Source: an uncultured Candidatus Saccharibacteria bacterium
Lineage (GTDB): Bacteria; Patescibacteriota; JABMPQ01; JAQVVF01
Reading direction: 5' to 3'
NCBI GenBank assembly: GCA_964574655.1
Contig: CAZNOH010000001.1
Coordinates: 329,852 to 393,851 of the forward strand
DNA: 64,000 bases
The translations under genes and the position numbers were made by a program. Below are positions 6,169 to 51,671 of this stretch, piece after piece. The notes beneath the pieces were generated by a model. That model did no database searches, had not been told where the DNA came from, and saw only the letters and a list, made by a program, of their open reading frames with translations. The stretch's first letter is position 1, and the number at the start of each line of letters is the position of its first letter.

Positions 6169-6972
6169 ATGCAAAAAATAGTTTCTGAAAAATTAAGTAA
6201 ATATAAAAATCTAGTTCAAAGTTTGTCTATCGGTGACTTTGGGAGATTGAGATTCGGAGAGGATAAAAGCGAAAGTCATATAAAACAGATTATTAAGAAT
6301 AGAGAAGAGTATTTTAAAAATTTTGGTGTTGATTTGAAAAATGTGGTAATGCAGAATCAAGTTCATGGAACTAATATTTCTTTAGTTTCTAAAAATGATT
6401 GCGGAAAAGGTGTATTTGGTCCCAAAACTTATGTTAAAGATAGTGATGGATTAATTACAAAAGATAGAAATGTTTTTTTAGTGTGCTTTACGGCTGATTG
6501 CTTGCCCGTTTCTTTTTATGACCATAAGCTAAAAATTTGTGGCATTGCTCATTCTGGCTGGAAAGGAACTTTAAATAATATTGTTGGCAAAATGATTAAT
6601 GAATTTGAAAAATTGGGCAGTAATGCAAAAGACATTATTGTTTATATTGGACCAGCAATTGGCAAATGTTGTTATGAAGTGAGCAAGGCTAAGGATAATA
6701 GAATCGCAAGATTTGAAAAATTCCTTCTTGGTCTGAAGCCTGCCTGCTCGGTAGGCAGGGCCAAGCCACAAGAAGAGTTGATTATAAAAAAAGAAAATAA
6801 AGCATATATAGACTTGAAAAAAATCGTTAGAGTAGAATTATTGGATGCCGATATTAAGAAAGAGAATATTGAAATCTCGGAAATTTGTACTAGTTGTGAT
6901 GAGCGGTTTCCGTCTTATCATCGAGATTTGGAATGCAAGGCTGATTTGTTGAGCGTGATTGGGATGAAATAG
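6169..6972 (+). CDS. pgeF: PgeF/YfiH family protein (DUF152 purine nucleoside phosphorylase / polyphenol oxidase-like)
   Basis: FLVCFTADCLPVSFYDHKLKICGIAHSGWKGTL...IGPAIGKCCYEV conserved Cys/His motifs; contains in-frame 52-nt palindrome at 6724..6775. Confidence 0.6.
   Translation: MQKIVSEKLSKYKNLVQSLSIGDFGRLRFGEDKSESHIKQIIKNREEYFKNFGVDLKNVVMQNQVHGTNISLVSKNDCGKGVFGPKTYVKDSDGLITKDRNVFLVCFTADCLPVSFYDHKLKICGIAHSGWKGTLNNIVGKMINEFEKLGSNAKDIIVYIGPAIGKCCYEVSKAKDNRIARFEKFLLGLKPACSVGRAKPQEELIIKKENKAYIDLKKIVRVELLDADIKKENIEISEICTSCDERFPSYHRDLECKADLLSVIGMK
6724..6775. repeat. intragenic in-frame GC-rich palindrome (CTTCTTGG..CCTGCCT-GCTCGGT-AGGCAGG..CCACAAGAAG) inside pgeF
   Basis: Nested stems read directly; encodes LLGLKPACSVGRAKPQEE; contains GTAG. 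Confidence 0.5.
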
Positions 6973-6990
6973 CTTGCGAAAAGCTTGTTA

Positions 6991-7020
6991 TTCGGATATT
7001 ATGATATTAAGATATTTGAT
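6991..7020 (+). promoter_or_regulatory. TTCGRATATT-type tandem array (ttcGGATATTAtGATATTAaGATATTTGAT) upstream of murD
   Basis: GATATT repeated at 8-9 nt period; same motif at 15062, 15145, 21466, 35681, 40329, 2657. Confidence 0.35.
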
Positions 7021-7132
7021 AATCGAAACTCGGTTTTGTACAAAATTGAAAGATAAATGTGATTAAGAACAGCTTGATATGAATATTGTGTTGTTTGATT
7101 TAGTAAAAAACCGAGTATCTTAAGTTATCTCT

Positions 7133-8624: not shown

Positions 8625-8700
8625 TTTAAATACAAAAAATTCTAAATTCTAAACACAAAATTCTAAATAAACTCAAAAAATTAAATTACAAAATTGCGAT
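8625..8700. repeat. intergenic AAATTCTAAAT / AAATTACAAAAT repeat cluster (inverted copies at 8735..8765)
   Basis: aaattctaaattctaaacacaaaattctaaataaactcaaaaaattaaattacaaaattg; same units occur in-frame inside secA. Confidence 0.5.
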
Positions 8701-8776
8701 TATGGCGTTGGTTTTGGTAATTTTTATTTTGTATTTTTAATTTATTTAGAATTTAGGATTTAGAGTTTTTAAAAGA

Positions 8777-9883
8777 ATGCAAAAACAAAAACCAGATTAT
8801 GTTTTTCTTGTCGTAGCACTAATTTTAGTGGTTTTTGGTTTGATTATGTTGTCTTCAGCAAGCGTTGTTTTGTCGTATCAGAATTTTGGCAATAATTATT
8901 ATTATTTTACTCATCAGCTTTTGTTTGGAGTGCTGATCGGATTAGTTGCAATGTTTGTTTGTTACAAAATTGATTATCATAACTGGAAAAAGTTTGCAGC
9001 ATTGATGTTAATTCTGACTTTGGTTTTGTTGGTCTTGGTTTTTATTCCAGGACTTGGTTTTGAATATGGAGGTGCGAAAAGATGGGTCAATTTGGGTCCC
9101 TTTGGGACCATTCAACCAACAGAAATTGCAAAATTAACTTTTCTTTTATATTTGGCAACTTGGCTAGACAAGAGATCTCAAGGAATAAAGGATTGGAAAT
9201 ATAGCTTTGCGCCATTTTTGCTTATGCTTGCTGTTGTTGGAACTTTAATAGTATTGCAACCCGATGTTGGTACAATGACAGTAATTATCTTAATGTCAAT
9301 CGTTGTGTATTTTGTGGCAGGAGGTAAAATAACGCATTTGGCAGTTCTGGGAGTGGGCGCTGTCTTGATCATGATGCTGTTGATAAAAATTGCGCCTTAT
9401 AGAATGTCACGTTTTACAGTGTTTTTAAATCCAGAACTAGATCCGCAGGGCATTGGTTATCAGATAAATCAATCTTTATTGGCCGTAGGATCTGGCGGAA
9501 TTTTGGGTAGAGGCTTGGGCAAGAGTATACAGAAACATAATTATTTGCCAGAGGCGTCTGGTGATTCTATTTTTGCTGTCATTGCTGAAGAAATGGGTTT
9601 TATTAGAATAATTTTCTTGTTATTACTTTTCTTATTTTTTACGTATCTTGGATTTAGAATTGCAAAAAGAGCGCCAGACATGTATGGAAAACTAATCGCA
9701 GCAGGAATTACAGCATGGGTAGCTTTGCAGGCTTTGATTAATATGTCAGCAATGATCTCTTTGATTCCCTTGACTGGCATTCCTTTGCCTTTTATATCTT
9801 ATGGTGGATCAGCGATTATTTCTTTGTTAGCGGCGTGTGGGATAATGTTGAATATTTCAAAGCAGTCGAGAGTTTCGGATTAA
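8777..9883 (+). CDS. ftsW: cell division protein FtsW (SEDS family)
   Basis: 10 TM helices, conserved SEDS motifs (GGAKRWV, SGGILGRGLG, PEASGDSIFAVIAEE). Confidence 0.8.
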   Translation: MQKQKPDYVFLVVALILVVFGLIMLSSASVVLSYQNFGNNYYYFTHQLLFGVLIGLVAMFVCYKIDYHNWKKFAALMLILTLVLLVLVFIPGLGFEYGGAKRWVNLGPFGTIQPTEIAKLTFLLYLATWLDKRSQGIKDWKYSFAPFLLMLAVVGTLIVLQPDVGTMTVIILMSIVVYFVAGGKITHLAVLGVGAVLIMMLLIKIAPYRMSRFTVFLNPELDPQGIGYQINQSLLAVGSGGILGRGLGKSIQKHNYLPEASGDSIFAVIAEEMGFIRIIFLLLLFLFFTYLGFRIAKRAPDMYGKLIAAGITAWVALQALINMSAMISLIPLTGIPLPFISYGGSAIISLLAACGIMLNISKQSRVSD

Positions 9884-9980: not shown

Positions 9981-11588
9981 ATGAAAATACTTTTAGCAGG
10001 CGGAGGAACTGGCGGGCATATTATGCCTATTTTGGCTACAGTAAAGCAAATAATAAGAATAAATCCTGAGACGCAATTTTTATGGATAGGAACGAAAAAG
10101 GGTCCGGAAGCAAGAATTGCTCGCGATAATAAAATTGAGTTTAAGGCTGTTTTGGCTGGTAAAATGAGACGCTACGTTTCATTTTGGAATCTTGTTGATT
10201 TGATTAAGTTGCCTTTAGGTGTTGTGCAAGCTTATTTTAAAGTAAAAAAATTCAAGCCAGATGTTTGTTTTAGCAAGGGCGGATATGTAAGCGTTCCAAC
10301 TGTTCTTGCTTGCCATCATTTTAAAATTCCAGTTTTATTACATGAATCAGATATAATTGCTGGCAAATCAAATTTGTTTATGGCGAAATATGCCAATAAA
10401 ATTGCTTTAGGTTTTGAAGAAGGCAAGCAGAGTTTTAAAGATTATTCCAATAAAGTTGTTATTACTGGCAATCCAGTACGTGATGAAATTTTGTCAGCAA
10501 ATAGAGAAAATGGTTTAAAAGATTTTAAATTGAATAATAATAAGCCAGTTTTGTTGATAATGGGTGGGAGCCAAGGCGCTCAAAGAATAAATGAATTAAT
10601 TGGTCAAGTTTTGCCCAAGTTTTTGGAAAAATGGCAAATTATTCATCTTGTTGGTCCAGAGCATGGAAATCAAATTTTAGGAAATCTGGGTGCATTGGAG
10701 AATGATTATCATGTTTTTAAATTTTTGGATGGAAAAAAGATGGGCGAGGCTTTAGCAGTTGCGACATTAATAGTTTCAAGGTCTGGTGCTAATAGTTTGG
10801 CGGAAATTGCAGCATTGGGCAGACCAGCAATATTAATTCCATATCCTCATTCTGCAGGCGATCATCAAAAAATCAATGCTGATATTTATGCTAAAAATAA
10901 TGCAGCGATTGTCTTGGATGAGAAGGATCTGACTCCAGAAAAACTATTGAAAGAAATTAATAATTTGTTAATAGATAAAGGAAAATTAGAAAAATTGCAG
11001 TTAGCGATGTTAAAAATGTCTAATAAAGAGGCGAATAGCAAGTTAACAACTGAAATTTTAGCTTTGGCCAAATCAAAAAATGTTTTGGCTAAAAAGAATA
11101 AGAAGATTTTAGTGTTTGTAGAGGGTACTATTTTGATGCAAAAAAAAGCTTTTGGTGAAAGTCGTGATAAAATTGTTTTGCAGGTTAAAAATAACGATCC
11201 TTCAATTGATGATTTTGCTAATTATATTATGATTGGCCAAGCAAATTTGAAATTAAAAAAATGGCAAGAGCAAGGCGCAAAAATTTTGTATTTAACTTCA
11301 AGAACTTTGGCTGAAGAAGTTGCTCAGATCGGTGAAGTCTTGGCTAAAAATAATTTTCCAGAAGGTGATTTATTCTATAGAAAAGAAAATCAGCAATATA
11401 AAGATATTGTTGAATATATAAAGCCAGATATTTTGATTGAAGATGATTGTGAAAGTATTGGTGGAATAAAAGAGATGGCTATTTCTCAAGTTAAGCCAGA
11501 AATTAAAAATAATATTAAATTAATTGTTGTTAAAGAATTCGCTGGCATTGATAATCTTGTGGATGAAATTTCTGATTTGATGAAATAA
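9981..11588 (+). CDS. murG: UDP-N-acetylglucosamine--N-acetylmuramyl-(pentapeptide) pyrophosphoryl-undecaprenol N-acetylglucosamine transferase with ~180-aa C-terminal extension of unknown function
   Basis: MKILLAGGGTGGHIMPIL N-terminus; GT28 motifs (HESDIIAGKSN, GGSQGA); extra C-terminal domain after ~residue 365. Confidence 0.75.
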   Translation: MKILLAGGGTGGHIMPILATVKQIIRINPETQFLWIGTKKGPEARIARDNKIEFKAVLAGKMRRYVSFWNLVDLIKLPLGVVQAYFKVKKFKPDVCFSKGGYVSVPTVLACHHFKIPVLLHESDIIAGKSNLFMAKYANKIALGFEEGKQSFKDYSNKVVITGNPVRDEILSANRENGLKDFKLNNNKPVLLIMGGSQGAQRINELIGQVLPKFLEKWQIIHLVGPEHGNQILGNLGALENDYHVFKFLDGKKMGEALAVATLIVSRSGANSLAEIAALGRPAILIPYPHSAGDHQKINADIYAKNNAAIVLDEKDLTPEKLLKEINNLLIDKGKLEKLQLAMLKMSNKEANSKLTTEILALAKSKNVLAKKNKKILVFVEGTILMQKKAFGESRDKIVLQVKNNDPSIDDFANYIMIGQANLKLKKWQEQGAKILYLTSRTLAEEVAQIGEVLAKNNFPEGDLFYRKENQQYKDIVEYIKPDILIEDDCESIGGIKEMAISQVKPEIKNNIKLIVVKEFAGIDNLVDEISDLMK

Positions 11589-46578: not shown

Positions 46579-48438
46579 ATGTCTACAAAAAAACAAATAA
46601 AGGAAATTCTTGAAAATATTGATAATGTTGCTGAAAACTCTAAATATTTGCATTCAGTAGCAGATGAATATCGAAAAGTTAGAGATTTGTATTTTGTGAA
46701 ATTGAAAGACGAAAAGAGTGCCAAAAGAATTCAATCGTTAATTGACGTGTTGAATTTTGTGATTTCTGACAATATGCTAAAAGAAGTATCGTCAGGAGTG
46801 TCAGAAAATGGAATATGTTGGAAATATCCTGATATTTCATTTTTTACTGAAAATGGTTTTAAAGAAGTGGAACAGGCATTTAAGACTACAAAAAGTATTA
46901 AACTAAAAGCAAGGTATTCAGATTTTTTTTGGTTATCCAAGAAGGATTATAAAAAAGCCAGAATCGCATTTGATAATTATTTCATTTTAATTAAGAAATA
47001 TGAAGAAGCGGACAAGAAAAATCCAATTGGTTATTTTGGACTTGATGTTTTAGATTCTACTAGAAGAGCTTTTCAAATATCAAAGAGTATTAGTTATCGA
47101 CAATCAGACATTATAAAAGAGATAGAGCGTTTGAGTTTGAATTTTAATTCAAAGAGTAGTTCGAAGTATAAACTAGTAATTGATCTTGTTTCAATAGCAC
47201 TCAATAACAAAAAAGAGTTTAAGAGTGAAGAGTTTTGGCAAGGATTAGTTCTTATTTGTGAGAAATATTATAAAGAATTGAGTAAAGACAAAAATTGGTA
47301 TTTTTCTAGGGATTATCTAAATAATGCTAAAAAAATTGAATTGATGATCTTTAGTAAGAAAAGCAAAAAGTGGGATAAATTGGTTGCAAAAAGTTATCTA
47401 TGCGAGGCTGATTATCATGGAATGCAAGAAAGTTTGGCAGAGCTACCTTCTTTATTGAGCTCAATTGAAGAATATAAAAAGTTAAAAGATTTCAGGAAAA
47501 CTGAAGAGTTAAAGAAACGCTACGAAAAAGCATCCAAAAATGTGAGACTTAAAGAATTAAGAACAGAGATAAATATTTCGAGAATTGTTACTGTTGCCAA
47601 AAATCAAGCAAATGAGTTGTGCAAACAGCGACCCGACGAAGTTTTTAAATATTTACTCTTGAGTCCGGATTTATTTCCGATATACAATAGTATAGAAATT
47701 GAGGCGAAAAAAAATGAAAAAAGATTTGTGTTCATGCATCTAGGCAGTCAAATTGTTTTTGATCAAAAGATGAATATTGCTCGAAGATATTGCTCTAAAG
47801 AAGAAAAACATTTTTTTGCAATTTTACGACAATTTGGAGTGTCTTTTATAATTAACAAGATTTATACAGATATTATTTTTGAGAAGTTAATCGAGAAAAA
47901 TATTTTGACATGGGTTAACACAAGTTCTTTCCTAAGAAAATATTGTTGGTACAAAAATGTTTATGAAGTAAAGAATGATAAAGGAATAACTTTATTTAAA
48001 TCACAAAAATGGCTTGATCTTATGGCACCCGGAATAAAATTATATTTAAATAACGCGAAAAAATATTTAAGAAAAAAAGATAAAAAAATTCCTTATTCAG
48101 AAATTATTTTGGCATCAGATTCATTGGCTATGAAAATAGAGGGAGTGATTAGAGAAATCTTCCGCAAATTGGGTAGATCTACTTTTAAGGTTAAAAGAAA
48201 GGGTGACGAGAACATTACAGTGGAAAAAGATTTAAATGATTTTTTGATTGATAATTTTTCAGAGCAAATGTTTTCTAAGGATTTGACATTATTAATGAGA
48301 TTCTTATTAATAGAACCATCGGGTTATAATCTAAGAAACAACATAGGACATTGCTTGATTCAAAAAGAAGATTATAATTTGTCAAATTTGCATTTTTTAT
48401 TTTTGATTTTGCTCAGATTGGGTAATTATAAATTTTAA
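46579..48438 (+). CDS. large hypothetical protein with C-terminal HEPN-like Rx4H motif (LRNNIGH); candidate defense protein
   Basis: 619-aa ORF, no P-loop; 12-nt gap to downstream Cas4-like nuclease gene. Confidence 0.4.
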   Translation: MSTKKQIKEILENIDNVAENSKYLHSVADEYRKVRDLYFVKLKDEKSAKRIQSLIDVLNFVISDNMLKEVSSGVSENGICWKYPDISFFTENGFKEVEQAFKTTKSIKLKARYSDFFWLSKKDYKKARIAFDNYFILIKKYEEADKKNPIGYFGLDVLDSTRRAFQISKSISYRQSDIIKEIERLSLNFNSKSSSKYKLVIDLVSIALNNKKEFKSEEFWQGLVLICEKYYKELSKDKNWYFSRDYLNNAKKIELMIFSKKSKKWDKLVAKSYLCEADYHGMQESLAELPSLLSSIEEYKKLKDFRKTEELKKRYEKASKNVRLKELRTEINISRIVTVAKNQANELCKQRPDEVFKYLLLSPDLFPIYNSIEIEAKKNEKRFVFMHLGSQIVFDQKMNIARRYCSKEEKHFFAILRQFGVSFIINKIYTDIIFEKLIEKNILTWVNTSSFLRKYCWYKNVYEVKNDKGITLFKSQKWLDLMAPGIKLYLNNAKKYLRKKDKKIPYSEIILASDSLAMKIEGVIREIFRKLGRSTFKVKRKGDENITVEKDLNDFLIDNFSEQMFSKDLTLLMRFLLIEPSGYNLRNNIGHCLIQKEDYNLSNLHFLFLILLRLGNYKF

Positions 48439-48450
48439 AAATATATATTT

Positions 48451-49209
48451 ATGTCCACATATTACAAATCCAATCGTACAAAAAATATCTACGATCCAAA
48501 AAGCAAAGAGCCATACAAATTATCTCGCTCAAAGATTGAGAGTTTTTTGAGATGTCCGAAATGTTTTTATTTAGACAGGCGTCTTGGAGTTGGCCAGCCA
48601 CCTAGTTATCCTTTGAATTTGAATACTGCAGTTGATCATCTTCTCAAAAAAGAATTTGATTTGCACAGAGCAAAACAAAAAGCGCATCCGTTGATGAAAG
48701 CTTATGGGATTAAAGCAGTTCCTTTTGCTCATGAGATGATTAATGAGTGGCGAGAAAATTTTAAAGGCGTTAGATATCATCACAAGTCGACCAATTTCAT
48801 TATTTCTGGAGCAGTTGATGATTTATGGAAAGATACAAAAGGCAAGATTATTGTTGTTGATTACAAGGCGACAAGCAAGGATGCAAAAGTAACTTTGGAT
48901 GCAGAATGGCAAGGCGGATACAAAAGGCAGATGGAAATATATCAGTGGTTGCTTCGCAAGAATGGTTTGAAGGTTTCTGATACTGGTTATTTTGTTTATT
49001 GCAATGGAAAGAGAGACAGAAAAGCATTTGATGCAAAATTAGAATTTGATATTGATTTATTGCCATACGAGGGCGATGCTTCTTGGATTGAAAAGACTTT
49101 GAAAGATATTAAAAAATGTTTGAATGGAAAAATGCCGAAATCAGATGATGATTGCGATTATTGTAATTATCGGAATGCAGTTGAAATCGCAGAAAAACGC
49201 AGAAGCTAA
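48451..49209 (+). CDS. Cas4/RecB-family PD-(D/E)xK nuclease with four-Cys cluster
   Basis: N-terminal RCPKCFYL (CPRxxY-like), VDDLW...IIVVDYKAT (D..DxK), QMEIYQ (QxxxY), C-terminal CDYCNY. Confidence 0.65.
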   Translation: MSTYYKSNRTKNIYDPKSKEPYKLSRSKIESFLRCPKCFYLDRRLGVGQPPSYPLNLNTAVDHLLKKEFDLHRAKQKAHPLMKAYGIKAVPFAHEMINEWRENFKGVRYHHKSTNFIISGAVDDLWKDTKGKIIVVDYKATSKDAKVTLDAEWQGGYKRQMEIYQWLLRKNGLKVSDTGYFVYCNGKRDRKAFDAKLEFDIDLLPYEGDASWIEKTLKDIKKCLNGKMPKSDDDCDYCNYRNAVEIAEKRRS

Positions 49210-49237: not shown

Positions 49238-49513
49238 ATGTATTATCTTTATATTTTAGAATGCGCTGATAAGACTTTATATACTGGAATTACAACAGAT
49301 TTGAAGCGAAGATTGATTGAGCATAATAATTCTAAATTAGGTGCAAAATATACATGTGCTAGAAGACCAGTAAAATTAGTTTATTCTAAAAAATTTAAAA
49401 CCAGATCATCTGCTAGTAAGGAAGAAGCTAGAATTAAAAAATTGAAAAAATCGGATAAATTGGAATTGATTCGTAGGGGTTCAACCCTGTCATTCGACAG
49501 GGCAAGTATTTGA
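49238..49513 (+). CDS. GIY-YIG nuclease domain protein (YhbQ/UPF0213-like); 3' end overlaps REP element
   Basis: YYLYILECADKTLYTGITTDLKRRLIEHN...EEARIKKLK. Confidence 0.6.
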   Translation: MYYLYILECADKTLYTGITTDLKRRLIEHNNSKLGAKYTCARRPVKLVYSKKFKTRSSASKEEARIKKLKKSDKLELIRRGSTLSFDRASI

Positions 49514-49521
49514 ACCCCTAC
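49473..49521. repeat. REP element GTAGGGGTTCAA-[CCCTGTCATTCGACAGGG CAAGTAT]-TTGAACCCCTAC
   Basis: GTAG...CTAC ends; same family as 51063 and 51375. Confidence 0.65.
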
Positions 49522-49536
49522 TGTTTTATTTTTGTC

Positions 49537-49565
49537 TTGAAATTTGGTCTGAATTGGCGTAATAT
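49537..49565 (+). promoter_or_regulatory. sigma70-like promoter for tRNA-Gln: -35 TTGAAA, 17-nt spacer, -10 TAATAT
   Basis: Read directly; ends 12 nt before tRNA 5' end. Confidence 0.45.
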
Positions 49566-49577
49566 GATCTTGATTAT

Positions 49578-49648
49578 TCCGGGATCATCTAATGGTAGGA
49601 TAGCAGGTTCTGGACCTGCTTATCTTGGTTCGAATCCAAGTCCCGGAG
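49578..49648 (+). tRNA. tRNA-Gln (anticodon CTG)
   Basis: Acceptor TCCGGGA/TCCCGGA 7 bp, anticodon stem GCAGG/CCTGC with loop TTCTGGA, T-arm CTTGG-TTCGAAT-CCAAG; manual fold, D-arm short. Confidence 0.65.
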
Positions 49649-49662
49649 TGAAATGTAATTTT

Positions 49663-51045
49663 ATGTTAAAACACCACTTTTTCACGCCAGAGTACATGAA
49701 TGTTTTTGATCTGGATCAAATCTACATGACGAGCTCAATGTGGCATGACACAAAAATGAAAGATACTTGGGCGACTTTTGATCTGATTGTCAGAGACATG
49801 CCAAAGAATAGAAACTTTTTAATTTTTACTGGCTTGGAAGAAATGGCAACACATCTGCAAAATTGGAAATATACTGATGAGCAAATTGCAATGCTTAAGA
49901 AAATGAAATTAATTTCTGATAATTTTGCAAAATATTTAAAGAATTTAAAATTTGAAGGCGATGTTTATGCAATGCCAGAAGGCAGTGTTTTTTTTAATAA
50001 TGAGCCAGTTGTCAGAATTACAGCGCCTTTAATTCAATGCAATCTGTTGACAGCATTTTTAATTACTTCTTTGAGTTCTAATACAATTTTTTCTTCAAAA
50101 TTTGTAAGATCAGTTATTGCTGCCAAAGGTAAAAGTGTAATTGGTCCAAGCTCAGTGAGAGCGCAAGGTTTTGAATCTGCTTTCAAAGCGCAAAGAAGCG
50201 CCTATATTGTTGGAAGCAAACAAGTGCCTTCTCCGGTTGTTAGAGATTTTCTGAACATACCAATGGGCGATAACGTAACAATTGCTTATCATGCTTTTAT
50301 TAATTCTTATGAATCTGAACAAGAAGCGATGCAAGTTGCCGCAGATCATGCAAAAGTTGATCTTGCATTAATGGTGGATACTTATGATTATGATAAAGGT
50401 ATTGAAAACGCAATCGTAATTGGAAAGCAGTATAAAAGAATGGGCAAGAATTTAAAAATAGTCGTGGATAGCGGTGATCTATATGAGAATGTAAGCAAAG
50501 TTAGAAAAAGGCTTGATAAGGTTGGTTTGCAAAATATTAGAATTATAGTTGCGAGCAATTTAGATGAATATAAAATTACTGATTTAATGAAAAAGAAAAT
50601 TCCTGCTAATATTTTTATCGTTGGTACTGAAGCTGTGACGTCATCAGATGTTCCAAAACTAGAAGTTGTTTATAAAATTTCTGAAATAATTGAAAAAAGT
50701 GGCAAGATAATTAATAAAATGAAATTGTCGCCAGGCAAGATGAGCTTGCCAGGCCGAAAACAGATTTATAGAAAATTTAAAAATAATTATTTTGAAAAAG
50801 ATGTTATTGGTTTGGAAGGCGAGAAGGGATTGGGCGAGCCATTATTGAAACCGATATTTAAAAAAGGAAAATTAGTTCATGATTTGCCAAGTGTTTTAAA
50901 AATTAGAGATTTTGTGAAAGAACAATTAAAACAGTTGCCAAAAAGATATTTAGAAATTGAAAAGACTTATAAATATCCAGTTGAAATTAGTGATAAATTA
51001 AATAAATTACTTGATAAAACAAAAAAAGAAATTCAGGCGAGATAA
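49663..51045 (+). CDS. pncB: nicotinate phosphoribosyltransferase
   Basis: FDLDQIYMTSSMWH N-term, VDTYD and VVDSGDL motifs; upstream part of ORF-track ORF overlaps tRNA and is rejected. Confidence 0.6.
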   Translation: MLKHHFFTPEYMNVFDLDQIYMTSSMWHDTKMKDTWATFDLIVRDMPKNRNFLIFTGLEEMATHLQNWKYTDEQIAMLKKMKLISDNFAKYLKNLKFEGDVYAMPEGSVFFNNEPVVRITAPLIQCNLLTAFLITSLSSNTIFSSKFVRSVIAAKGKSVIGPSSVRAQGFESAFKAQRSAYIVGSKQVPSPVVRDFLNIPMGDNVTIAYHAFINSYESEQEAMQVAADHAKVDLALMVDTYDYDKGIENAIVIGKQYKRMGKNLKIVVDSGDLYENVSKVRKRLDKVGLQNIRIIVASNLDEYKITDLMKKKIPANIFIVGTEAVTSSDVPKLEVVYKISEIIEKSGKIINKMKLSPGKMSLPGRKQIYRKFKNNYFEKDVIGLEGEKGLGEPLLKPIFKKGKLVHDLPSVLKIRDFVKEQLKQLPKRYLEIEKTYKYPVEISDKLNKLLDKTKKEIQAR

Positions 51046-51062
51046 AATAAATTTGGAGGGGA

Positions 51063-51087
51063 GGGGTTGAAAATATTCAACCCCTAC
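51063..51087. repeat. REP element GGGGTTGAA-AATA-TTCAACCCCTAC immediately upstream of RAYT
   Basis: Same family as 49473. Confidence 0.6.
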
Positions 51088-51095
51088 AGATTATA

Positions 51096-51671
51096 ATGGA
51101 ATATAATTTTTCAAAACGTCGTCGTAAATTAATTAGGTTGAAAGGATTTGATTATTCTAGCGATAATTGCTACTTTATAACAATTTGTACGAAACAAAAG
51201 GAATGTTTGTTTGGCAATATTATAAATCAGAAAATGGTATTAAATAATGCCGGAGTTATTGCAAAAAAATATTGGTTAGAAATTCCAAAGCATTATCAAT
51301 ATATAATTTTAGACGAATATATTGTGATGCCAAATCATATTCATGGAATTTTGGTGATCGATAAAAAATATCCGGTAGGGGTTCAATATATTGAACCCCT
51401 ACGCCAAAATAAATTTCAAAAAATTATATCTGGTTCAATTGGTGCGATCGTTCGTGGTTATAAAATCGGAGTGACAAAATGGTATAGACAAAATACAAGA
51501 TATAAAATTGTTTGGCAAAGATTATTTTATGACCACATTATCCGCGACGAACGATCGTTAAATATTATTCGAAATTATATTAAAGAAAATCCCAAAAATT
51601 GGTTATTTGATAGGAACAATATCGAGGACATCGGATTATTGAATGCAATAATTGAAATCAAAAAATTATAA
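51096..51671 (+). mobile_element. REP-associated tyrosine transposase (RAYT, IS200/IS605-like Y1 HuH transposase)
   Basis: IRLKGFDYSSDNCYFITICTKQKECLFG, HuH MPNHIHGIL, C-terminal WQRLFYDHIIRDERSLNIIRNYIKENP signature; REP copy embedded in-frame at 51375..51402. Confidence 0.75.
51375..51402. repeat. REP element GTAGGGGTTCAATATATTGAACCCCTAC inserted in-frame within RAYT CDS (encodes VGVQYIEPLR)
   Basis: Perfect 12-bp palindrome arms; frame checked (offset 279 from start). Confidence 0.65.

Follow-up and report, generated by a model that had tools for sequence, protein, structure and literature searches.

The stretch analyzed here, 64,000 nucleotides (nt) of contig CAZNOH010000001.1 from an uncultured Candidatus Saccharibacteria bacterium (referred to below as the window), contains at 51096 to 51671 an open reading frame (ORF) whose product is supported as a RAYT (REP-associated tyrosine transposase)-type Y1 HUH protein, together with three hairpins of one GTAG-footed family of repetitive extragenic palindromes (REPs), one of which lies in frame within the RAYT gene. 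The GC content of the window is 32.4%, and the REPs are conspicuously GC-rich against it. Hairpins and their arms were searched for over the whole window, in which only one RAYT copy is found. The features on which the argument rests are the following.

51096..51671, plus strand: coding sequence (CDS) of a RAYT/TnpA_REP (Y1 HUH endonuclease), 191 amino acids (aa), subclass 2.4-like, identified from the ORF list, profiles, homologues, and a structure model.
51336..51344, plus strand: codons of the HuH motif, H81-I82-H83 in MPNHIHG, read from the sequence; H81 and H83 are invariant in the protein alignment A1 (homologues of the window RAYT).
51513..51518, plus strand: codons of W140-Q141, corresponding to W94-Q95 of Escherichia coli TnpA_REP by HMMER alignment to 4ER8.
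51576..51578, plus strand: codon of the presumed catalytic tyrosine Y161 (YIKENP motif), invariant in A1 and aligned with YIYINP of 4ER8.
49473..49521, no strand assigned: copy 1, the distal REP, a 12-bp double-foot outer stem with a nested inner hairpin at 49485..49502.
51060..51087, minus strand: copy 2, a 5'-flanking REP variant reading GTAGGGGTTGAATATTTTCAACCCCTCC on the minus strand, 8 nt before the RAYT start codon.
51375..51402, plus strand: copy 3, the internal in-frame REP, a 28-nt perfect double-foot palindrome, GTAGGGGTTCAATATATTGAACCCCTAC, coding for VGVQYIEPL(R).

Copy 3 is composed of the arms GTAGGGGTTCAA and TTGAACCCCTAC around the center tata and, in frame within the RAYT ORF, encodes V94 to L102 (VGVQYIEPL) together with the first base of R103. 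The same arms enclose a 25-nt loop in copy 1, and this loop contains the nested hairpin, CCCTGTC-attc-GACAGGG, which looks like a further small palindrome placed inside the REP. The last 13 codons and the TGA stop (49511 to 49513) of the ORF at 49238 to 49513, which matches the Pfam GIY-YIG profile (E = 2.1e-18), come from copy 1. Copy 2, GGAGGGGTTGAA-aaat-TTCAACCCCTAC, has its end 8 nt 5' of the ATG at 51096 and is a variant, with the GTAG foot intact on the minus strand only and a compensated C/G swap in its stem; the double foot GTAG...CTAC is found in copies 1 and 3, and copy 2 retains a single foot. No other hairpin of this family was found in the window. All three hairpins, including the one in the RAYT frame, had been noticed in the original prediction and are present at the positions listed above. 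Its account of them as three copies stands as to their presence, but copy 2 starts at 51060 rather than 51063 and is not identical to the others, and the internal REP spans about 9.3 codons rather than adding the roughly 11 residues then attributed to it.

The window contains five exact matches to the 12-mer arm, each of them in one of the three hairpins, compared with none in 100 dinucleotide-preserving shuffles, and a chance palindrome is rejected on this count. When two mismatches were allowed, the arm search of the window gave no further convincing copy. Folded as single-stranded DNA (ssDNA), the three hairpins reach −10.4 to −18.6 kcal/mol (z = −5.3 to −7.4), with copy 1 at −18.6 kcal/mol (z = −7.4), copy 2 at −10.4 to −11.2 kcal/mol, and copy 3 at −12.4 kcal/mol (z = −5.4). 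An assembly artifact at 51375, for which a check had been proposed, is unlikely, because a separate Logan assembly carries the same 2,576 bp, internal REP included, with no differences; homologues in unrelated assemblies share the feature, and we rejected this explanation.

The RAYT ORF has 6,737 homologues, several of which are called "REP element-mobilizing transposase RayT" by JGI. A family profile built from 43 of these homologues had E. coli TnpA_REP (4ER8) as its sole sequence match in the PDB (28 bits, weak). The AlphaFold (AF2) model of the 191-aa protein (pLDDT, 84.3) found IS608 TnpA and 4er8_A as its top matches when compared with the PDB by Foldseek, at E values of about 1e-7 (2vjv_A, 4.5e-7; 4er8_A, 7.9e-7; probability, 1.00). 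In this model the HuH motif lies on predicted strand 81-88 and Y161 lies within predicted helix 152-164. W140 is invariant and Q141 almost invariant in A1, and W140, Q141, H147, and R150 are matched in the 4ER8 block IWQPRFWEHAIRN by W94, Q95, H101, and R104 of the E. coli protein; D146 stands where E. coli TnpA_REP has E100. The W94-Q95 region of the latter has been implicated in GTAG recognition (PMC6006769). The Tyr motif is followed by 25 residues that are unconserved in A1, without a C-terminal tail domain.

Residues 93 to 106 (PVGVQYIEPLRQNK), located between the HuH strand and helix 115-133, form the only internal stretch of the AF2 model with a pLDDT below 50. The REP-encoded peptide is thereby placed, according to the model, in a disordered β3-αC surface loop, where it would be distant from the catalytic core. 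The question raised earlier, whether the inserted residues fall in a loop, is accordingly answered by the model in the affirmative, with the REP-encoded residues in the predicted β3-αC connection.

To what extent other members of the family carry such a palindrome was assessed with 80 homologous loci taken from species-representative genomes by means of protein patterns that excluded the REP-encoded segment. These loci span Chloroflexota, Bacteroidota, Cyanobacteria, Desulfobacterota, Nitrosomonas, Planctomycetota, Patescibacteria, Histophilus, and others. When their DNA was scanned, the interval from the HuH to the Tyr motif contained a perfect stem of 8 bp or more, closed by a short loop, in 71 of the 80 gene copies, a frequency of about 89% for the internal palindrome in this family across phyla. 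The stem was at least 10 bp long in 52 of the 72 genes that also had a recognizable Tyr motif. The modal stem is 14 bp, giving a 28-nt palindrome that is mostly GTAG...CTAC; among palindromes with a stem of at least 10 bp, 38 of 52 start with GTAG, and the 28-nt ones finish with CTAC. Per kilobase, the HuH-Y segment contains 2.78 palindromes, the remaining CDS 0.26, and the flanks (1.2 Mb) 0.125, and the enrichment at the HuH-Y site is 22-fold. The original prediction had considered a REP inside its own mobilizing enzyme unusual, a view that is overturned by the equivalent palindrome in these 71 copies and by its publication as a hallmark in 2018 (PMC6006769). The internal REP is shared across the family and already on record in the literature, rather than being an accident of the genome from which the window comes.

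The palindrome interiors differ among lineages (GCGAAAAATTTTTCGC, GCACGGCATGCCGTGC, GCGCAGCATGCTGCGC, ACGTTGCATGCAACGT, and others). Across 28 lineage-distinct 28-mers, double-sided changes were found at 8 of the 12 stem pairs and one-sided changes at none of the 12; since these 28-mers were preselected as perfect hairpins, it is the variety of pair types that is informative and not the percentage paired. The encoded peptides follow suit. In A1 the residues after the HuH strand read VGVQNFEPLQ, VGAKNFSPLR, VGVENFQPLH, VGTQNFVSLQ, etc., and co-vary as the palindrome arms require, with VGAKNFSPL and VGAQHAAPL among the further REP peptides.

This covariation bears on the view that the palindrome is native coding sequence, either incidentally self-complementary or selected for its peptide, and unrelated to REPs. 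Such a view can draw on the fixed place of the peptide in A1 and on its recurring V-G-x-x...P-L pattern, but the residues change together according to base pairing (VQ..EP, AK..SP, VE..QP, TQ..VS), and the palindrome is read in two phases, GTA GGG (phase 0) in 31 genes and xGT AGG (phase 1) in 7, so that like palindromes give unrelated peptides (VGAQHAAPL versus GRGTACRAPT). The third phase is not usable, because a TAG stop would arise. In addition, the same sequence is found extragenically in the window and mostly outside RAYT genes in metagenomes, and the segment is predicted to be disordered. Given the covariation together with the existence of two reading phases and of extragenic copies, we rejected an incidentally palindromic native peptide and regard this origin as extremely improbable. 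Homologues with the same residues in the absence of palindromic DNA had been named as an observation that would refute the original prediction; we found the opposite, homologues that differ in their residues yet keep palindromic DNA, and for this reason the conserved entity is the DNA palindrome, from which the peptide follows. The REP-encoded peptide appears dispensable, since some homologues (e.g., P0005 and L045) have no REP.

The same stem comparison speaks to a role at the RNA level, in which the mRNA stem-loop, rather than a DNA element, would modulate translation or stability of the RAYT message. A hairpin would form in the mRNA as well, and REPs of other bacteria are known to act as RNA elements (PMC3733652). 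However, none of the 12 stem pairs showed a one-sided, G.U-type change in the 28 lineages, and beside the perfect stems sense G.T mismatches numbered 33 against 57 antisense A.C mismatches, with no sense excess. Moreover, the double-foot symmetry equalizes the two DNA strands as substrates, which is not needed for an RNA function. With neither G.U-type one-sided changes nor an excess of wobble on the sense strand, RNA-level selection was set aside as being without support, and we consider it highly unlikely.

The internal REP is mostly 28 nt long, which is not a multiple of 3, and extra junction bases must always accompany it, because the palindrome alone would shift the frame. Tandem or partial additional REP copies were seen in L001, L014, L021, and L069, and in L021 (315 to 560) they form an in-frame tandem array in which GAKDFSGADV is repeated. 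P0089 has a second REP-derived peptide after helix αC, and in P0086, P0060, and P0020 REP-derived peptides occur in N- or C-terminal extensions. Nitrosomonas halophila (L044) has two RAYT copies 3.4 kb apart (6586 to 7060 and 9988 to 10576) whose internal REPs are identical, and the RAYT of "Candidatus Electronema" (L034; 10234 to 10372) contains an in-frame stop.

Orthologues of the window RAYT were found on two Patescibacteria contigs, L081 (P0002, 80% aa identity) and L083 (P0004, 69%), the former being the closest homologue, named "Patescibacteria group bacterium." The name of this homologue, the shared synteny, and the 32% GC all agree with a Patescibacteria host for the window. The Tyr motifs of L081 and L083 are YIKNNP and YIRNNP, respectively. 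A codon alignment showed the internal REP to be perfect in all three genomes, with codon indels adjoining it on both sides, in the following forms.

Window: left arm ...TTCAA, center TATA, right arm TTGAA...
L081: left arm ...TTCAG, center AATT, right arm CTGAA...
L083: left arm ...TTCAA, center AATT, right arm TTGAA...

The L081 copy thus carries a compensated A>G/T>C change, with Ile replaced by Ser. The copies outside the gene have fared differently. In L081 the copy orthologous to the 5'-flanking REP is decayed (GTAGGGATTCAATATTTTGAATCCCGAT), as is the REP at the 3' end of the GIY-YIG gene (GTAGAGGTTCAAAATTTTGAGCCT); the GIY-YIG orthologue itself (8651 to 8905) is 88% identical, and its terminal decayed REP is without the nested hairpin. 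A further extragenic copy in L081 is identical to the internal REP of the window. This pattern and the arm counts around the homologous genes given below would be compatible both with repeated replacement at a hot spot and with a constraint acting on the internal copy, without separating the two.

Beyond the RAYT gene, a metagenome scan for exact arms with a loop of 0 to 8 nt returned at least 132 copies on at least 120 contigs of 32 to 62% GC. Among the metagenome matches listed, 19 copies lie in RAYT-like ORFs and about 34 in other ORFs of at least 100 aa, the remainder being intergenic. The arm pattern of the family is GTAGGGGTT[CG]AA, and on the metagenome contigs with exact GTAGGGGTTCAA/TTGAACCCCTAC arms (L085 to L204) the center is mostly AATT. 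Several of the non-RAYT ORFs with a REP are about 200 aa long with the hairpin near residue 90 to 140, and these could be RAYT variants with another HuH motif. Because copies occur elsewhere in the window and, in metagenomes, mostly outside RAYT-like ORFs, the REP qualifies as a true dispersed repeat, with the internal copy belonging to its family; the original prediction of cognate GTAG REPs, one of them in frame in the RAYT gene, is supported. Around the homologous genes, 53 loci had 1 kb or more of flank on each side, and 26 of them have a cognate arm outside the CDS but no farther than 1 kb from it. Only this count is used, as the count within ±10 kb is unreliable, with about one chance match expected per locus (10-mer, one mismatch).

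The TnpA_Y1 subclass 2.4, defined by Quentin, Siguier, Chandler, and Fichant in 2018 (BMC Genomics 19:475; PMC6006769) and equal to RAYT Group 4 of Bertels, Gallie, and Rainey (2017), is characterized by the motifs NH[IFV]H, WQ, and YIxNNP, a median length of 194 aa, a highly variable β3:αC insertion, and a further insertion of 8 aa where αB ends (PMC6006769). Its REPs are of the "long double foot" type, with 5' GT[AG]G and 3' C[TC]AC, and in-frame double-foot REPs between HuH and Y were described as a striking trait peculiar to the subclass and interpreted as neutral insertion in a peripheral loop (PMC6006769). The window RAYT resembles these proteins in its NHIH and WQ motifs, its length of 191 aa, and its lack of a C-terminal tail domain, as well as in the double-foot REPs that flank the gene and the one in frame in β3-αC at codons 94 to 103. 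It differs in the Tyr motif, in which YIKENP matches YIxNNP at five of six positions (E for N), in the very small size of its REP family, three copies in 64 kb, and in its host, which belongs to the Patescibacteria (candidate phyla radiation), whereas the 2018 paper names Cyanobacteria, Bacteroidetes, and "various phyla" (PMC6006769).

E. coli TnpA_REP (4ER8; subclass 2.2, Group 2) shares with the window protein the Y1 HUH fold, the aligned W-Q...H..R block, and Y-I-x-x-N-P, and both genes are flanked by GTAG-footed REP hairpins. In contrast to the window RAYT, it has DHLH in place of NHIH, its REPs are bulged and single footed, it lacks an internal REP, its β3-αC connection is short, and it bears a conserved serine in a C-terminal extension. 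The TnpA proteins of the IS200/IS605 family (IS608 and ISDra2) are the best structural matches of the window model (Foldseek E values, 4.5e-7 to 7e-6) and recognize subterminal ssDNA hairpins via a 5' guide tetranucleotide, a mode of recognition that by analogy the window protein may share. They belong to true multicopy insertion sequences with distinct left and right ends and have the motifs DH[VI]H and Y[IV]ENQ, whereas the window gene is single copy in the window and tied to short dispersed palindromes rather than to insertion sequence ends. In-frame GTAG REPs in other genes had been cataloged earlier by Di Nocera et al. in 2013 (PMC3733652). These intragenic GTAG/CGTC REPs and the Rickettsia palindromic elements (PMC3733652) are likewise inserted in frame, with short peptides tolerated in loops or termini, and the REP at the 3' end of the GIY-YIG gene in the window is of the same kind. 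They are scattered over unrelated genes and sites, unlike the internal REP of the window family, which occupies one conserved site of the enzyme believed to mobilize the repeat. REPs inside RAYT genes receive no mention in Bertels 2017 or Corneloup 2021 (PMC8266576), and a search for follow-up literature on the internal REP returned only the 2018 paper (PMC6006769).

Taken as a whole, we consider it very probable that the ORF at 51096 to 51671 encodes a subclass 2.4 RAYT that acts on GTAG-footed ssDNA hairpins by means of its HuH motif and Tyr161 and that carries a REP in a permissive loop of its own gene. By analogy with the characterized enzymes of E. coli, Stenotrophomonas, and Marinomonas, the protein would bind GTAG-footed hairpins extruded on ssDNA and would cleave and rejoin the DNA beside them, using the HuH metal site (H81 and H83) and Tyr161. 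Such activity could generate and maintain the local REPs, i.e., the one 8 nt upstream, the one 1.6 kb upstream at the end of the GIY-YIG gene, and the one inside its own frame. The internal copy would be tolerated because only in-phase, stop-free copies survive (xxG TAG being a stop). Judged again from characterized relatives, the enzyme most likely acted in cis and created this copy in its own gene by insertion or replacement, and the palindrome may be kept perfect through turnover or hairpin-templated correction.

Several observations weigh against this reading. The NCBIfam profile REP_Tyr_transpos (NF047646), built around proteobacterial RAYTs, matches the window protein with an E value of 1.7e-13 but at 50.7 bits, below its 80-bit cutoff, and the match to Pfam Y1_Tnp (PF01797; 18.9 bits) is under the gathering score of 23; some homologues do have matches to PF01797. 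Published RAYT biochemistry covers groups 2 and 3 only (PMC8266576). With only three REPs in the window, dissemination of the REP is scarcely visible. Finally, an internal copy that stays perfect in three relatives while orthologous flanking copies have decayed is a poor fit to purely neutral insertion, as are the loci, about half of the total, whose flanks carry no cognate arm up to 1 kb from the gene. We nevertheless place the protein among the RAYT/Y1 HUH enzymes despite the sub-cutoff scores because of the names of its homologues, the 4ER8 profile match, the fold match to IS608 TnpA and 4ER8, and the invariant H81, H83, W140, and Y161, in agreement with the original prediction of a RAYT.

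The last two of these observations are also what a selected cis-element would lead one to expect. The internal REP might serve as a heritable master (seed) copy by which enzyme and substrate stay linked in vertical and horizontal transmission, or as an autoregulatory site through which expression of the gene is controlled, either by the enzyme or by a hairpin forming in DNA or mRNA. The REP is near universal at one site across phyla; the copies are mostly perfect 28-nt palindromes with a 14-bp stem and not decayed remnants; the three Patescibacteria relatives all keep the internal copy perfect, by a compensatory change that costs an Ile-to-Ser replacement, and the orthologous upstream and GIY-YIG copies decay; a cognate arm is found close by in no more than the 26 loci mentioned above; and the distribution of subclass 2.4 is patchy and resembles that produced by horizontal gene transfer (PMC6006769). 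Against selection, approximately 10% of members are without any hairpin and still look intact, and the position in the loop, copy number, and phase vary, with tandem arrays in L021, L001, and L069, a variability that suits repeated insertion at a hot spot. Template-switch correction or frequent replacement can, moreover, keep palindromes perfect without selection, and the orthologue comparison involves three genomes only. We judge a selected cis-element to be quite unlikely and favor the permissive-loop REP of a subclass 2.4 RAYT described above.

The surroundings of the gene are partly conserved in the relatives. A PD-(D/E)XK nuclease, the GIY-YIG gene, tRNA-Gln, and the nicotinate phosphoribosyltransferase (NAPRTase) gene recur in the neighborhoods of L081 and L083. 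In the window, a 619-aa ORF (46579 to 48438) lies 5' of the GIY-YIG gene, as does a PD-(D/E)XK/Cas4-like nuclease gene (48451 to 49209; Pfam PDDEXK_1, E = 2.9e-17), and the pairing of nuclease and GIY-YIG genes is kept in L081. tRNA-Gln(CTG) (49577 to 49649) and the NAPRTase gene (49663 to 51045) then precede the upstream REP. The order in L081 (9850 to 10010) is GIY-YIG, tRNA-Gln, REP, and RAYT, and in L083 (5700 to 7747) NAPRTase lies 3' of the RAYT gene. In the window, one REP stands on each side of the tRNA and NAPRTase segment, a hint of rearrangement associated with REPs.

In-frame REPs in subclass 2.4 genes have been known since 2018 (PMC6006769), and what is new here is the example from an AT-rich Patescibacteria genome. 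As a discovery this adds little; its value lies in being minimal and clean, with one enzyme of 191 aa and three REPs in a 64-kb window taken from a contig of about 650 kb. The 22-fold enrichment, the Watson-Crick compensation, the 28-nt size, and the contrast between perfect internal and decaying external copies sharpen a testable question, namely, whether the internal REP persists by selection or by turnover. It is conceivable, although we think it unlikely, that the RAYT gene and its pristine internal substrate copy form a self-contained enzyme-plus-template unit, in which the REP is maintained rather than being a tolerated passenger. If so, the unit could re-seed the REP family once it had been transferred horizontally or the extragenic copies had been lost, and it might regulate itself via the internal site.

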